From positions 1,920,001-1,984,000 of the forward strand of contig CAWEEQ010000004.1 in the NCBI GenBank assembly GCA_963808235.1: 64,000 nucleotides of DNA, in the 5' to 3' direction. The stretch is from an uncultured delta proteobacterium (GTDB lineage Bacteria; Desulfobacterota; Binatia; Binatales; Binataceae). The position numbers were made by a program, and so were the translations under genes. The notes under the pieces are model-generated. The model made no database searches. It had not been told where the DNA came from and worked only from the letters and a program-made list of their open reading frames with translations. This document shows, piece by piece, positions 59,825 to 64,000 of this stretch. Position 1 is the stretch's first letter. The number at the start of each line of letters is the position of its first letter.

Positions 59825-60844
59825 ATGAAAGCAGCGGTGTTCAAGAAACAAGATCAGATGGCGGTGATCGAGGTGCCCAATCCGAGCGCCGGCGACGGAC
59901 AGGTCGTGCTCAAGGTCCACAACTGCGGAATCTGCGGCTCCGATCTGCACGCCGTGCAGTATGGACTCGGGATGGCGCCGGACACGGTGATGGGGCACGA
60001 GTTCTGCGGCGAGATTCATGAACTCGGCGCCGGCGTCGAAGATTATCGGGTCGGCGATCGCGTCACCTCGCTACCATACACGGCGTGCGGCATCTGCGAT
60101 TCGTGCGCGAGCGACGACGAGATGCACTGTTCGCATATTCGCTCGCTGGGTCTTGGGCAGCTGCCAGGTGCCTATGCGGAGTACGTGGTCTGCGGCGCGC
60201 GAAGCTTGCTGAAGCTCCCGGACAGCGTCGGCTCGCGCGCGGGCGCGCTGGTCGAGCCGCTCTCGGTCGGCCTTCACGGGGTGAATCGCTCGCACCTGAA
60301 ACCGGGCATGGGATGCGTCGTGATGGGCGCGGGACCAATCGGTCTGTCGACACTGATATGGGCCAAGGCAAAGGGCGCGGGAGCAGTTGTAGTATCTGAG
60401 CTCGCACCGGGTCGCACTGAGCTTGCGATGAGGCTCGGCGCGACCGCGGTCGCGAATCCGAGCAAGGAGGATCCCGCCGACAAGGTGCGATCGATAACCG
60501 GGCGCGCGCCGGAGATCGTCTTCGAATGCATCGGAGTCAAATCGACACTTAGCGCCGCAATCAACATGGTCGGCAGACGTGGGCGAGTCGTGGTGATCGG
60601 AGTGTGCATGGAGTCCGATAGCATCTACCCACTTAGCTGCGTGATGAAGGAAGTGAGCATCGATTTCGCGCTGGCCTACCGGCGCTCAGAGTTCCAGCAG
60701 ACTATCGACGCGCTCGCATCAGGCGCGATCGATGCGACCCCGATGATTACCGACGTGATCGACGTTGGCCAGGTGCCCGCGATGTTCGACGCGCTCAAGC
60801 ATCCGGGGACGCGGGCCAAGGTGATGGTCGAGTTTTCACATTAA
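59825..60844 (+). CDS. Zinc-dependent alcohol dehydrogenase (MDR family)
   Basis: CGICGSDLH, GHEFCG, C..C..C.......C structural zinc site, GAGPIG. Confidence 0.93.
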   Translation: MKAAVFKKQDQMAVIEVPNPSAGDGQVVLKVHNCGICGSDLHAVQYGLGMAPDTVMGHEFCGEIHELGAGVEDYRVGDRVTSLPYTACGICDSCASDDEMHCSHIRSLGLGQLPGAYAEYVVCGARSLLKLPDSVGSRAGALVEPLSVGLHGVNRSHLKPGMGCVVMGAGPIGLSTLIWAKAKGAGAVVVSELAPGRTELAMRLGATAVANPSKEDPADKVRSITGRAPEIVFECIGVKSTLSAAINMVGRRGRVVVIGVCMESDSIYPLSCVMKEVSIDFALAYRRSEFQQTIDALASGAIDATPMITDVIDVGQVPAMFDALKHPGTRAKVMVEFSH

Positions 60845-60944
60845 GTTGGATGCGGACGCAAGCGACTGCCGACCGTGGCGACGAGAATCATTTGCTTGAG
60901 CAGAGAACGCTCGCAGCTCTCCGCCCAGGTTACTTACTGGTGAC

Positions 60945-61019
60945 CTACTTGCCCTTGCCGCAGCAATCTTTATAGGCCTTACCTGAGCCGCACGCACACT
61001 TGTCGTTTGGATTTTGCAT
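60945..61019 (-). CDS. 24-aa stand-alone SEC-C metal-binding microprotein
   Basis: Manual read: AGGAGG, 7 nt, ATG; MQNPNDKCACGSGKAYKDCCGKGK-TAG matches the SEC-C consensus NDxCxCGSGKKYKxCC/H. Confidence 0.85.
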   Translation of the reverse strand: MQNPNDKCACGSGKAYKDCCGKGK

Positions 61020-61071
61020 TTCCGTACCTCCTGGATCTCAAATCCGGATTCGGTTAGCAATGCGTCGAGCG

Positions 61072-61103
61072 AGTAGTGTCCTGATTCCGAACCAGACACT
61101 ACT
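61072..61103. promoter_or_regulatory. Stem-loop between the Gly-rich gene and the SEC-C microprotein gene
   Basis: AGTAGTGTC (61072-61080) and GACACTACT (61095-61103) form a perfect 9-bp stem; no U tract. Confidence 0.5.
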
Positions 61104-61121
61104 GTCGACAGCTCACGCTAT

Positions 61122-61469
61122 CTAAAGGCCAAAGAACTCGTGAAGGCCCCGGGGTGGCGGAACGTCGTACTGCGGCCCCGCTCCATAATAATATGGCTGA
61201 GGCGCGTAGTAGTAGTCCGGATAGCCGCCTCCACCTCCCCAGTAGCCGCGACCGCCTCCCCAGTAGCCACCGCCTCCGTGGTAGTAGCCGCGACCGCCTC
61301 CCCAGTAGCCACCGCCTCCGTGGTAGTAGCCGCCACCACCGCGATGACCACCGCCGCGATGGTCGGCGTGCGCCGGTCCGGCCGCGAAGCTGCCAATCAC
61401 GAGGGTAAATGCGATAGCGCCGGCGATCCGGGCTATCTTAGAGCACAATTCCTTTTTCGATACTTGCAT
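61122..61469 (-). CDS. Secreted Gly/Tyr/Trp-rich low-complexity protein
   Basis: ATG 61469 after GGAG; signal peptide ending AHA; GGGYY/GGGYW repeats; Tyr/Pro-rich C-terminus. Confidence 0.78.
   Translation of the reverse strand: MQVSKKELCSKIARIAGAIAFTLVIGSFAAGPAHADHRGGGHRGGGGYYHGGGGYWGGGRGYYHGGGGYWGGGRGYWGGGGGYPDYYYAPQPYYYGAGPQYDVPPPRGLHEFFGL
61242..61333. repeat. Perfect 42-bp tandem repeat, about 2.2 copies, inside the Gly-rich gene
   Basis: GTAGCCGCGACCGCCTCCCCAGTAGCCACCGCCTCCGTGGTA at 61242 and 61284, partial at 61326; encodes YHGGGGYWGGGRGY. Confidence 0.9.
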
Positions 61470-61501
61470 AGTGACACTCCGTCGCGGGATCGACTCCCAC
61501 T

Positions 61502-62008
61502 TCACCTTGCTGCGGTCTGTTTTGCAGCCGAAGCCTTTTCGCGAGTGCGGAACAGCGAGTCCGCGGTCTTCTTCTGCGCGTCCGACATTGTGTTGTAGAG
61601 AGCCTCGAAGGGCGGAACGAATTTCTTCATTCCATCTTCATGCGCCTGGATGACCGGCTCATATGATTTGAGCACGTCGACGGCGCTCATTGACCGCGCG
61701 TCTGCGGCCCGCTCTTTCTGAAGCTTCGCCATCGATTCCGCGTTATCGCGCATCACCTGGGCAAGGTTGTCCCATTGTGGTTTCTGAGCGGCGGTGATGT
61801 GGAGCTGTTTGTGCAGCTCCTTGATACGCACTTCGACGTCAGCGTTACTGGCAGATTTCGCTGCGGGCGCCGCCATCGCCTGCTGTGAGGACGGCTGCGC
61901 CGGGCTCTCGCTTGAGGCCGCAAACAAAGGGCTGGCGAGAGCGACTGCGCCGAGAAGAGTTACCGCCGCGCTAGCTGCGCGTGCGGCTGGGTGCTTGAAA
62001 AGGACCAT
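61502..62008 (-). CDS. Spy/CpxP (LTXXQ motif) periplasmic chaperone-like protein
   Basis: Signal peptide; LHITAAQKPQW and LYNTMSDAQKKTAD LTXXQ-type repeats; RBS AAGGAG. Confidence 0.85.
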   Translation of the reverse strand: MVLFKHPAARAASAAVTLLGAVALASPLFAASSESPAQPSSQQAMAAPAAKSASNADVEVRIKELHKQLHITAAQKPQWDNLAQVMRDNAESMAKLQKERAADARSMSAVDVLKSYEPVIQAHEDGMKKFVPPFEALYNTMSDAQKKTADSLFRTREKASAAKQTAAR

Positions 62009-62258
62009 GATGTACACTCCTTAGTCAGTTACGGTTGACCAACCGTTGATGTATCCGCGTTTAAACTTCGTCATCGCTTTGCTTTGATTATTCCCTTGCG
62101 CTTGCGGCGTTCACTTTCCTCGGTCCACTATTAGCTTCTCACCAACTTCGACAAACATTCCATCCCCGTTCGCTCTATGACGTGCTCCAAAGCACATGGA
62201 TGCAACTACACGTAGATGCCGGTTAACTGGAAGGGCGGCTAGTAACCTCCGGAAACAA

Positions 62259-62313
62259 TGAGAGCGGCAGCCCTCGATGCGATCCTGGTTCGCATCGCAG
62301 GCTGCCGCTCTCA
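62259..62313 (-). terminator. Long hairpin terminator of the 62328-62645 gene
   Basis: TGAGAGCGGCAGCC...GGCTGCCGCTCTCA (14 bp) plus inner CGATGCGA/TCGCATCG (8 bp); followed by TTGTTT on the minus strand. Confidence 0.7.
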
Positions 62314-62327
62314 GGCGAAAGACCTTA

Positions 62328-62645
62328 CTAATAGTTGCTGGTTGTCCTGGTCGAAGAGTGCTCACTCGAGTCGCCACTGGGCGAGTCGCTGGTCGAGTTC
62401 GATGACGATGAGTGTTCGGTGGTTGTTGCCGGCGCGATCGGTGCGGGCGCCACGACTATTGCGGGAGGGGCGACTACTACCGGAGCCGGGTATACCGCGA
62501 CGGCGGCCGGTGCCGGCGCCGAAGTTGTGGTCTCGCTGGTCCGGTCCGAGGTTGTGGTGTCAGTCTGGGCGAATCCGACCGCAACGCTTCCGAACAGCAC
62601 TGCGACACCAAAGGACAATGCTGTAGCTTTCAATGAGTGTTTCAC
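62328..62645 (-). CDS. Small secreted Ser/Thr/Pro-rich protein
   Basis: GTG after GGAGG; signal peptide ending GFA-Q; low-complexity TTTS/PAP body. Confidence 0.72.
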   Translation of the reverse strand: MKHSLKATALSFGVAVLFGSVAVGFAQTDTTTSDRTSETTTSAPAPAAVAVYPAPVVVAPPAIVVAPAPIAPATTTEHSSSSNSTSDSPSGDSSEHSSTRTTSNY

Positions 62646-62886
62646 AATAGTACCTCCATACCTTCTTGACTCTAGAGTAAGAGCGAATTGCGCCAGCTAA
62701 CAAGGACGTCGGCGGTGCCGATTACAGTTTGAGTGCTCCGGAGCACTCGGCGTACGCAATAGTGATGATCCGGATGCCTTACATACGACACGAGCCGGTA
62801 ATAGTCCGAGCTTCAGGCCTGTATTCTCTTTGTGCTAAGAAGGCGCAAGGTGGTGATCTAATTTTCGCGATTGAATGGAGCGTGCA

Positions 62887-64000
62887 ATGGACGTCGACGA
62901 GTTGTTCGCGGGAATTTGCGATCGGATTCCGGACGCGATGGCCAAGCACAAGGTCCCCGGCGTCGTGCTTGGAATCGTGTGCGAGGGGCGCGAGCTCATC
63001 AAGGGGTTCGGTGTCACCAGCATCCGCAATCCACTGCCGGTTGATGACGCGACACTCTTTCAAATTGGCTCGACGACGAAGACCTTCACCGCTACGGCCT
63101 TGATGCGCCTGGTCGAGGCCGAGCAGCTCGCGCTTGACCAACCTATTCGAAGCTACCTGCCGGACTTCACGATGCGCGATCGCGAGGTCACTACGTGCCT
63201 CACGCTGCGTCATGTGCTTACCCATGTAGGCGGCTGGGACGGCGACTACTTTCCTGACGCCGGCAACGGCGACGACGCGCTCGCGAACTACGTCAGGTTG
63301 CTGGCGGACCTGCCGCAACTCACGAAGCTCGGCACCATCCTCTCGTATAACAACTCCGCGTTCTCAATCGCGGGCCGGGTGATCGAGGTAGTGACGGGTA
63401 AGACCTATGAATCGGCGCTCAAGGAACTGGTGCTCGAGCCATTAGGACTGAGGCATTCATTTCTGTTCCCGACCGACGTGATGACCCATCGCTTCGCGGT
63501 CGGTCACACGACGGTCGCGGACCAGACGATCGTGCTTCGTCCGTGGCATTTGACGCGTGCGTGCGGACCGGCGGGCGGAATCGCGGCGTCGATGAACGAT
63601 CAGCTCCGTTACGCGCGCTTCCATCTTGGCGACGGGACTGCGGAGGACGGCTCGCGAGTGCTCAGGCCGGAATCGATCGCGATGATGCAGACGCCGACTG
63701 ATGTTCGGGTGCTCGACATCAGAATGGGGCTCGCGTGGAGGACTTACGATATCGGCGGACCCCGGCGCGTCTTTCACGGTGGCGGAACCTACGGACAAAT
63801 CTCGGCCTTCACGATGACTCCGGCGCGCAAGTTCGCTCTCGCGCTCACCACCAATTCGACCAGCGGCGGACTCTTCACAACCGAAGTGACCAAGGGCCTG
63901 GTGGCGAAGTTCCTTGGCGCCGACGCACCCGAGCCAGTCGAGATTTCGATGAGTCCAACCCAGCTGGATGAGTACTCGGGGCGCTACTTGCAGGCCTCCG
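62887..64000 (+). CDS. Serine hydrolase, beta-lactamase/AmpC-like family (runs off the window end)
   Basis: Not in ORF track; manual read from ATG 62887: KVPGVVLG, FQIGSTTKTF (SxxK), LTHVGG, SYNNS (YxN), FHGGG. Confidence 0.9.
   Translation, partial: MDVDELFAGICDRIPDAMAKHKVPGVVLGIVCEGRELIKGFGVTSIRNPLPVDDATLFQIGSTTKTFTATALMRLVEAEQLALDQPIRSYLPDFTMRDREVTTCLTLRHVLTHVGGWDGDYFPDAGNGDDALANYVRLLADLPQLTKLGTILSYNNSAFSIAGRVIEVVTGKTYESALKELVLEPLGLRHSFLFPTDVMTHRFAVGHTTVADQTIVLRPWHLTRACGPAGGIAASMNDQLRYARFHLGDGTAEDGSRVLRPESIAMMQTPTDVRVLDIRMGLAWRTYDIGGPRRVFHGGGTYGQISAFTMTPARKFALALTTNSTSGGLFTTEVTKGLVAKFLGADAPEPVEISMSPTQLDEYSGRYLQAS

Follow-up and report, generated by a model that had tools for sequence, protein, structure and literature searches.

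A free-standing 24-residue SecA-type metal-binding domain encoded by a conserved microgene family of Binataceae

Work on the SecA-type metal-binding domain (MBD) has so far been confined to cases in which it forms the tail of a larger protein. For SecA itself, peptides of 22 to 27 residues are reported to fold with metal, and a synthetic 27-residue MBD binds Zn with a Kd of about 36 nM and prefers Fe; a conserved serine and an aromatic residue are described in the same report as features of the domain besides its Cys/His ligands (10.1101/613315). An MBD fused to SUMO co-sediments with 70S ribosomes, the SecA tail crosslinks to uL23, and the domain is reported to be retained in species without SecB (PMC6620043). 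Outside SecA, the AscA/YecA protein is described as binding both the ribosome and SecB through its MBD, and MBDs are, for its authors, a "toolkit" that functions in fused form (10.1101/2020.07.21.215244). A literature search, for which most subscription journals and supplements were out of reach, returned no paper on a free-standing MBD.

Here we describe a micro-ORF from an uncultured member of the Binataceae, the entire predicted product of which corresponds to such a domain. The window is the whole stretch of DNA analysed, 64,000 nucleotides in length, and its relevant features are collected in Table 1. On the minus strand, the micro-ORF starts with an ATG at 61019 and stops with a TAG at 60947-60945. 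An AGGAGG site, a 7-nt spacer, the ATG, 24 codons and the TAG had all been claimed in the original prediction, together with the lack of an upstream in-frame domain, and each of these elements is present as claimed; the stop-to-stop frame comprises 30 codons only.

Table 1. Features of the microgene, its surroundings and the second copy in the same genome
Feature	Position	Strand	Basis or remark
Micro-ORF, 24 codons + TAG	60945..61019	(-)	Reading frame and Pfam SEC-C match; predicted product MQNPNDKCACGSGKAYKDCCGKGK
Shine-Dalgarno AGGAGG	61032-61027	(-)	Spacer tacggaa, 7 nt, then ATG
3' stem-loop, 11-12 bp	60897..60927	(-)	Fold; about 20 nt past the TAG, without a T-run
Module of RBS, ORF and 3' stem-loop, 175 nt	60870..61044	(-)	Absent from a 90-95% identical relative
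3' hairpin of the upstream glycine/tyrosine-rich gene	61072..61103	(-)	Fold and conservation; context, outside the microgene
Glycine/tyrosine-rich secreted-protein gene, upstream of the micro-ORF	61122-61505
Second copy	L002:1492-1575	(-)	Sigma-54-type TGGCATGCCGATTGC at -59; response-regulator receiver gene just upstream

The assignment of the predicted peptide to SEC-C is near certain. It matches Pfam SEC-C (PF02810) with 29 bits (cut-off 20.4, E 9.3e-7), peptide residues 5-22 being aligned to positions 2-19 of the 19-position profile, which confirms the domain originally named. The sequence contains the metal ligands C8, C10, C19 and C20 and the conserved residues S12 and Y16, and these six positions are invariant or near-invariant across 30 aligned members of the family described below; all published metal-binding determinants of the SecA MBD are present in the peptide. 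The best matches in the PDB are the SecA MBD (1TM6 and 1SX0 with an E of about 1e-4, and also 1SX1, query residues 2-24), the SecA peptide bound to SecB (1OZB) and the C-terminal piece of YchJ (9L6B, E 2e-4, query residues 2-24). Residues 4-24 share 86% identity with some SecA tails of Clostridia. Among the NCBIfam models, no full-length match to YchJ (UPF0225) or YecA-AscA (UPF0149) was obtained, and the YchJ- and YecA-type models matched only the last 17-21 residues, with 10-26 bits versus cut-offs of 68-267. A six-frame scan of the genome to which the window belongs (93% complete) revealed three SEC-C matches, namely SecA, the window ORF and a second small ORF, SecA being the only other MBD protein. 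The tail of this SecA is of the CH type and more basic (KKYKRCHGK), while the micro-ORF peptide is of the CC type (KAYKDCCGK).

The ORF had also been described as flanked by two stem-loops. The upstream one is real and reaches -25 kcal/mol over a 61-nt stretch (z -2.8), yet it belongs to the glycine-rich gene, as its 3' hairpin. Four homologous loci, spread over three genomes of the genus, have retained it with compensatory changes (alignment A6); there, the hairpins stand right behind the stop of a glycine-rich gene and similarity ceases just past the hairpin; matches to the upstream glycine-rich gene region end at query 488-501. The imperfect stem proposed at 60927-60946 did not hold up, the stable stem being located at about 60897-60927; a stem is retained at this position in both of the nearest relatives (L064 and L081, alignment A3). 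Rfam returned nothing relevant over 60000-62500, with one sub-threshold miRNA match, and no match at the gathering score for eight family loci. As far as Rfam goes, the conserved 3' elements appear to be ordinary hairpins or terminators.

Further upstream, the glycine-rich gene forms a co-oriented operon with a gene for an LTXXQ (Spy/CpxP-like) protein identified by its Pfam match, and the next gene downstream of the micro-ORF is convergent. The genus carries several copies of the glycine/tyrosine-rich secreted-protein gene (window 61064-61109; L034, L035, L037, L043), and their terminal hairpin, GGTAGTGTCC..GGACACTACC, shows compensatory changes, no T-run and no Rfam match. Within the window's copy of this gene, 62 nt of the glycine-rich repeat (61284-61347) are swapped for 17 other letters in the RNA contig of a relative, a repeat-length polymorphism.

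The search for relatives revealed a family of small genes. Scanning one genome per species (185,579 species) with the family alignment yielded 80 loci that were kept, of which 27 are stand-alone ORFs of 24-26 codons preceded by a GGAGG-type site; at the remaining 53 the match is the C-terminal end of a long frame, in most cases SecA (Clostridia and others). A start-anchored DNA pattern covering the first 11 codons matched 30 species genomes, and their labels are almost all Binataceae, delta proteobacterium or proteobacterium. When 151 Binataceae genomes were searched with a family profile built from 30 members, 65 full-model matches of at least 39 bits were found in small frames of 56 genomes, nine of which have two copies; cleanly apart from these, SecA tails matched only positions 5-23 of the profile, with at most 34 bits. 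The 151 include six unpublished genomes, two of them positive (G057, G084) and four negative (G023, G082, G099 and G111). Counting published genomes only, the family is present in 54 of 145 Binataceae genomes and in 13 of 30 genera, and the expectation of conserved free-standing copies with intact RBS and start and a low pN/pS (about 0.07) was borne out there. The window's own genome contains the second stand-alone copy at G000:C4:72758-72838, with a GGAGG RBS and a predicted 27-aa product, MASTPNPSAPCPCGSGKMYKDCCGKNA, of subfamily B.

A few matches carry labels from outside the family. Spread beyond the Binataceae via L071, L095 and L116 (labelled Proteobacteria or Thermodesulfobacteriota) was considered and rejected, the contigs being identical to those of Binataceae-family genomes. 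For the "Terriglobales" MAG G181, a full-length match was found in none of 120 other genomes of the order, and its copy is therefore either a mis-binned contig or the product of a rare transfer. The remaining outside labels are "Acidobacteriaceae" (L086) and "Limisphaerales" (P0016), as labelled.

Protein databases capture this family to a small extent. RefSeq contains a few members from Candidatus Binatus and Binataceae under the domain label "SEC-C metal-binding domain-containing protein", and WP_424671964.1, WP_442886451.1 (24 aa) and WP_423969268.1 (28 aa) belong to the same microprotein family. The exact window peptide is absent from a collection of 15 billion proteins, an exact look-up of 16 relatives retrieved three, as RefSeq entries, and a homologous-protein search with the 44-residue natural frame around the L055 ORF gave no candidate. 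Common gene callers apply a minimum of about 90 nt, and the family illustrates how genes of less than 30 codons are lost or mis-called. Some of these microgenes are stored as proteins of 42-61 residues, an alternative start further upstream having added a spurious N-terminal stretch (P0007, P0011, P0042, P0089), and two of them, P0011 and P0089, carry the JGI name 'uncharacterized protein YchJ'.

The anatomy of the genes was compared across 62 loci, comprising 60 profile matches and the two loci of the window's own genome and leaving out G074 (a weaker partial match) and two unpublished genomes. ATG is the start codon in all 62, a Shine-Dalgarno-like site lies at -18 to -4 in 60, and the four cysteines are kept in 60, the exceptions being L227, where CS replaces CC, and L247, where the second Cys is R (CPR for CPC). 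As a rule the ORFs are 24-28 residues long, with one of 86, one of 31 and two of 25 noted as exceptions. Subfamily A (MPxPNDKCPCGSGKAYKDCCGK..; 32 loci, 24-26 residues) is the type of the window copy, subfamily B (MANKPNPSAPCPCGSGKLYRDCCGK..; 21 loci) has mostly 26-28 residues, and in subfamily C (MPHPIEPCPCGSLKLYRDCCGKGK; nine loci, L238 and L240-L247) GSL replaces the near-universal GSG. The consensus peptide is MPQPNDKCPCGSGKAYKDCCGKSK.

Selection on the peptide is evident from several measures. The pooled pairwise pN/pS of 21 distinct genes is 0.061/0.759 = 0.08, and by subfamily it is 0.074 in A (n=32), 0.048 in C (n=8) and 0.20 in the 28-residue members of B (n=11); these figures are rough, because the pooled pairs are non-independent and pS is saturated. 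At codon positions 1, 2 and 3, the variable alignment columns number 7, 7 and 22 of 24, and mean ungapped identity is 0.81 within the ORF versus 0.26-0.27 in the 75 bases on each side. Residues that are not ligands, namely N/P/D before the first cysteine, G-S-G-K, Y-K-D and G-K, are conserved to the same degree as the cysteines. This pattern demonstrates strong purifying selection on a Binataceae family of predicted 24-28-residue microproteins, and it establishes 60945-61019 on the minus strand as a real protein-coding gene, the entire predicted product of which is one SecA-type MBD. Judged from sequence, both a chance ORF and a decayed gene tail can be dismissed. A remnant of a longer gene was considered and rejected, since the closest homologues are stand-alone genes and not tails, contrary to the concern that homologues might always be tails, and since the 62 loci are intact as small ORFs. 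A leader peptide or attenuator was likewise rejected, since the amino-acid sequence is conserved and not the codons alone, and the downstream gene in the window is convergent.

Many family members are laid out as complete single-gene units, with a promoter pattern, a Shine-Dalgarno site, the ORF and a hairpin, the promoters being predicted from pattern matches only. A sigma-54-type element ([TC]GG[CT]A[CT]-N5-[TA]TGC; -24 GG / -12 GC) lies 50-86 nt upstream of the start codon at 29 of the 62 loci, i.e. 11 of 32 in subfamily A, 17 of 21 in B and one of nine in C. In a first set it was present in 19 of 38 loci, against a background of 9 matches in 332,532 bases, or 0.0054 expected per 200 nt. 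The subfamily B loci align as whole units, in which an upstream ATTACAnnGTTCTCAC box is followed by the -24/-12 element, a GGAGG site and the ORF, and a long GC hairpin with a T-run closes the unit. The window's own genome encodes rpoN, and the strict pattern followed by a Shine-Dalgarno site and an ORF occurs there 21 times, seven of them within 13-105 kb of contig C4 (L248, L249). These seven sites precede the second microgene, DUF1328, BON, DUF4142 and Ku genes and genes for small membrane proteins; elsewhere in the genome, a strict site also precedes a hemerythrin gene. Families such as BON, DUF1328, DUF4142 and Ku mark general-stress or dormancy regulons in other bacteria. Because the same sigma-54-type pattern precedes Ku, BON, DUF1328 and DUF4142 genes, the data suggest that the family is regulated within a stress regulon. 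Judged by pattern matches only, the C4 cluster at 13-105 kb resembles a general-stress island run by sigma-54.

The gene neighbourhood of the family is variable. No neighbour is conserved family-wide and no neighbour cluster is common to more than six of 28 loci; synteny is limited to sub-groups of related genomes, and the neighbours in the window are absent from all of these. A conserved operon partner was therefore rejected, the neighbours differing between sub-groups. By Pfam, 83 neighbouring ORFs form a mixed set in which stress-type families recur here and there (BON in three loci; Usp, DUF892 and DUF4142; AhpC; Ku/LigD; holin-X-like proteins and sigma-54 activators in two loci each). A stress-linked role fits this family picture. 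The original prediction had derived such a role from the Spy-like gene next to the ORF; the LTXXQ neighbour is confirmed and stress agrees with the promoters and neighbours of the family, but the Spy-like gene itself is unusable as functional evidence because the neighbourhood is not conserved across the family. Among the paralogues in the genus, the one closest to the window type is a 26-aa copy in G014 (L134), which sits between a gene for an NtrC-type sigma-54 activator (L134:1-1155) and a Ku-LigD pair (L134:2905-5068).

A short, cysteine-rich and conserved peptide with its own RBS could also be the precursor of a RiPP, i.e. a modified cysteine-rich peptide. Yet no maturase, radical-SAM gene or transporter is conserved alongside the 28 loci compared for synteny or among the 83 neighbouring ORFs, a leader/core layout is lacking, and the whole peptide is a canonical SEC-C domain, which renders this explanation highly improbable.

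Within the family, the window copy is the odd one. On the minus strand, no sigma-54 pattern was found over 60800-63000 and no sigma-70 consensus upstream of the ORF, and the distance from the neighbour's hairpin to the RBS is only about 40 nt; the second copy in the same genome (L002) does carry a sigma-54-type element. Among the 32 members of subfamily A, the window copy alone has Q2 and A9, the other 31 having P at these positions. The nearest relative (L064/L203), from the same genus, shares 88% DNA identity, with RBS, ORF and 3' hairpin in common and different flanks. In L064, visual reading reveals an extended -10-like box, TGgTATACT, that the window copy lacks.

The module itself varies between close relatives. 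In the soil metatranscriptome run X1, a 514-nt contig joins 61045 to 60869 with four other letters between them; it derives from a 90-95% identical relative, skips the 175 nt with RBS, ORF and hairpin and connects the glycine-rich gene directly to DNA just past the end of the ADH gene. The 175-nt module is therefore present in one and absent from another of two close relatives. X1 is a single RNA run with related sequence, and it contains contigs of the relative only (share 0.07), among which no copy of the micro-ORF was detected; DNA may also be present in a library of this kind. The downstream ADH gene is conserved across the genus and synteny stops at its stop codon, as in the closest genome, where, by a reading of the translations, ArsR-like and methyltransferase genes follow the ADH gene instead.

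These features raise the possibility that the family is real but that the window copy is a promoter-less, drifting cassette with little or no expression, either recently inserted or on the verge of being lost. The missing promoter consensus, the short distance to the upstream hairpin, the unique P2Q and P9A exchanges, the absent -10-like box and the absence of the module from the relative all agree with this. On the other side, the ORF is intact, the AGGAGG is perfect, the four cysteines, the serine and the tyrosine are all kept, and A9 appears to be tolerated, as C-A-C occurs in the natural SecA tail L139. Read-through from the co-oriented upstream operon is also conceivable, because the upstream hairpin has no T-run, and if the window copy is expressed, this is probably via read-through from the LTXXQ/glycine-rich operon. 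A cassette of this kind is, in our view, quite unlikely; the unique Q2/A9 and the lack of a promoter match indicate that the window copy may be weakly expressed or drifting.

What such a peptide might do is best approached from its chemistry and from the partners that are available. The peptide would be expected to fold autonomously upon binding a single Fe or Zn ion, using the four cysteines with help from the conserved serine and tyrosine. Four cysteines in 24 residues provide one metal site and no multi-metal cysteine cluster. One explanation takes this at face value and considers the peptide as a buffer of metal or thiols, produced in large amounts by stressed cells, that holds one Fe or Zn ion or serves as a four-thiol redox sink and has no macromolecular partner. 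It would then be a minimal metallochaperone or a metallothionein-like peptide, the latter as entertained in the original prediction. The cysteine density and the presence of every metal-binding determinant reported for the SecA domain (10.1101/613315) are in line with this, as are the strong Shine-Dalgarno sites (60 of 62) and stress-type promoter patterns, which would fit an abundant product, and the Fe-dependent or redox neighbours TauD, AhpC and a 4Fe-4S protein, with a hemerythrin gene behind the same promoter pattern in this genome. Against it, the peptide offers a single site only, and at a Kd of about 36 nM, Zn binding by the SecA MBD is far too weak for the free Zn of a cell, leaving only Fe buffering plausible. 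Metallothionein families gave no match in the Pfam scan at E up to 1, SEC-C being the sole return. The conservation of the non-ligand residues at the level of the cysteines, moreover, points to a defined surface and not to a chelator alone, and we consider pure buffering as rather unlikely.

A second explanation follows from the resemblance to YchJ. In Salmonella, Cys149 and Cys150 of the C-terminal MBD of YchJ are reported to form an intermolecular disulfide induced by ROS, and the lysines beside this pair constitute the DNA-binding face (PMC13377102). By analogy, oxidation of the C-terminal Cys-Cys pair in the micro-ORF peptide under oxidative stress could generate a dimer or a mixed disulfide, whereupon its lysines would bind nucleic acid or a target protein. 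The match to 9L6B and the invariant or nearly invariant CC pair with its flanking lysines speak for such a redox switch. However, the rest of YchJ is missing, the YchJ-type NCBIfam models matching just the last 19 residues far under their cut-offs, 24 residues offer little surface for sequence-specific DNA binding, and the natural variant L227 has CS instead of CC. We therefore regard the redox switch as improbable.

The reading that we favour is that of a free MBD acting in trans. As a soluble domain, the peptide would occupy the docking sites that are used by MBDs fused to larger proteins. SecB (PF02556) was found neither in the window's own genome (0/1, 93% complete) nor in any of 41 genomes of the class, a set that includes one unpublished genome (G023). 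Because SecB was not found in these 41 genomes, the SecB-decoy role entertained in the original prediction is unlikely, and without SecB the docking site would most likely be the ribosome surface near uL23. There, the peptide could modulate the engagement of ribosomes by SecA, which is named as the modulated partner because it is the only other MBD protein in the genome. In most of the family this would take place under stress, as about half of the genes are located behind sigma-54-type promoters and promoters of this type also precede Ku, BON, DUF1328 and DUF4142.

A trans-acting free MBD is favoured because the metal determinants are complete, SecB was not found and SecA is the only other MBD protein. 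As a proposal, a trans-acting domain on MBD docking sites, most plausibly on the ribosome, is nevertheless tentative, and we place it clearly below an even chance. The predicted complex of the peptide (alignment A2) with the genome's own uL23 and Zn had a score of 0.00 with an uncertain peptide fold, the peptide being below the calibrated size, and speaks neither for nor against docking. The peptide also contains fewer basic residues than the SecA tail of its own genome, and the argument for electrostatic docking is weaker because of this. The genomic context gives no partner, because no neighbour is conserved family-wide. The explanation as a whole, comprising a real microgene, a self-folding metal peptide, action in trans at the ribosome and control by stress, appears only slightly less than evenly balanced. 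Its most specific version would have a stress-induced, sigma-54-controlled free MBD compete with the SecA tail at the ribosomal exit (uL23) and so throttle or re-route co-translational secretion in dormancy; this we consider unlikely. If it were true, it would be the first example of a bacterial secretion motor governed by its own regulatory knob in free form.

Independent of the mechanism, a free and strongly selected MBD of 24 residues indicates that this knob can be functional by itself. The micro-ORF peptide also represents a minimal reagent, accessible by chemical synthesis, for probing the binding of ribosome, membrane, metal pool or oxidant. On the level of regulation, the sigma-54-type promoters that precede the microgenes and the Ku, BON, DUF1328 and DUF4142 genes hint at a sigma-54 programme resembling a general stress response in uncultured Binatia.

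Small proteins with little beyond one MBD, or with two in tandem, are also encoded in other phyla and are similar to the micro-ORF product in this respect. They comprise 41-68 residues, as exemplified by P0119 (41 aa), P0032 (53 aa), P0091 (58 aa), P0067 (50 aa, Planctomycetota) and the tandem protein P0012 (65 aa), and they differ by 20-45 extra N-terminal residues or two motifs and by an MBD of the GRNDPCPCGSGKKYK type. Some of these five are located on contigs of 29-75 kb, and they are putative whole genes or split secA ends.

AscA/YecA and YchJ of E. coli and Salmonella are comparable in that they possess a SecA-like MBD outside SecA that binds Fe or Zn; in these reports, AscA docks to ribosomes and SecB, and the CC pair of YchJ is a redox-sensitive switch (10.1101/2020.07.21.215244; PMC13377102). 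In contrast to the micro-ORF product, which has no other domain, their MBDs are the tails of proteins of 150-220 residues. With the SecA MBD, the micro-ORF product shares the C-x-C-G-S-G-K-x-Y-K-x-C-C/H motif, including the conserved serine and tyrosine, and it matches the size of the 22-27-residue metal-binding peptides for which structures are reported (10.1101/613315). The lineage differs, as SecB, the classical partner of the MBD, was not found in it, and so does the architecture: the usual SEC-C domain is the tail of a larger protein, whereas the micro-ORF product is unattached and has its own RBS and start codon.
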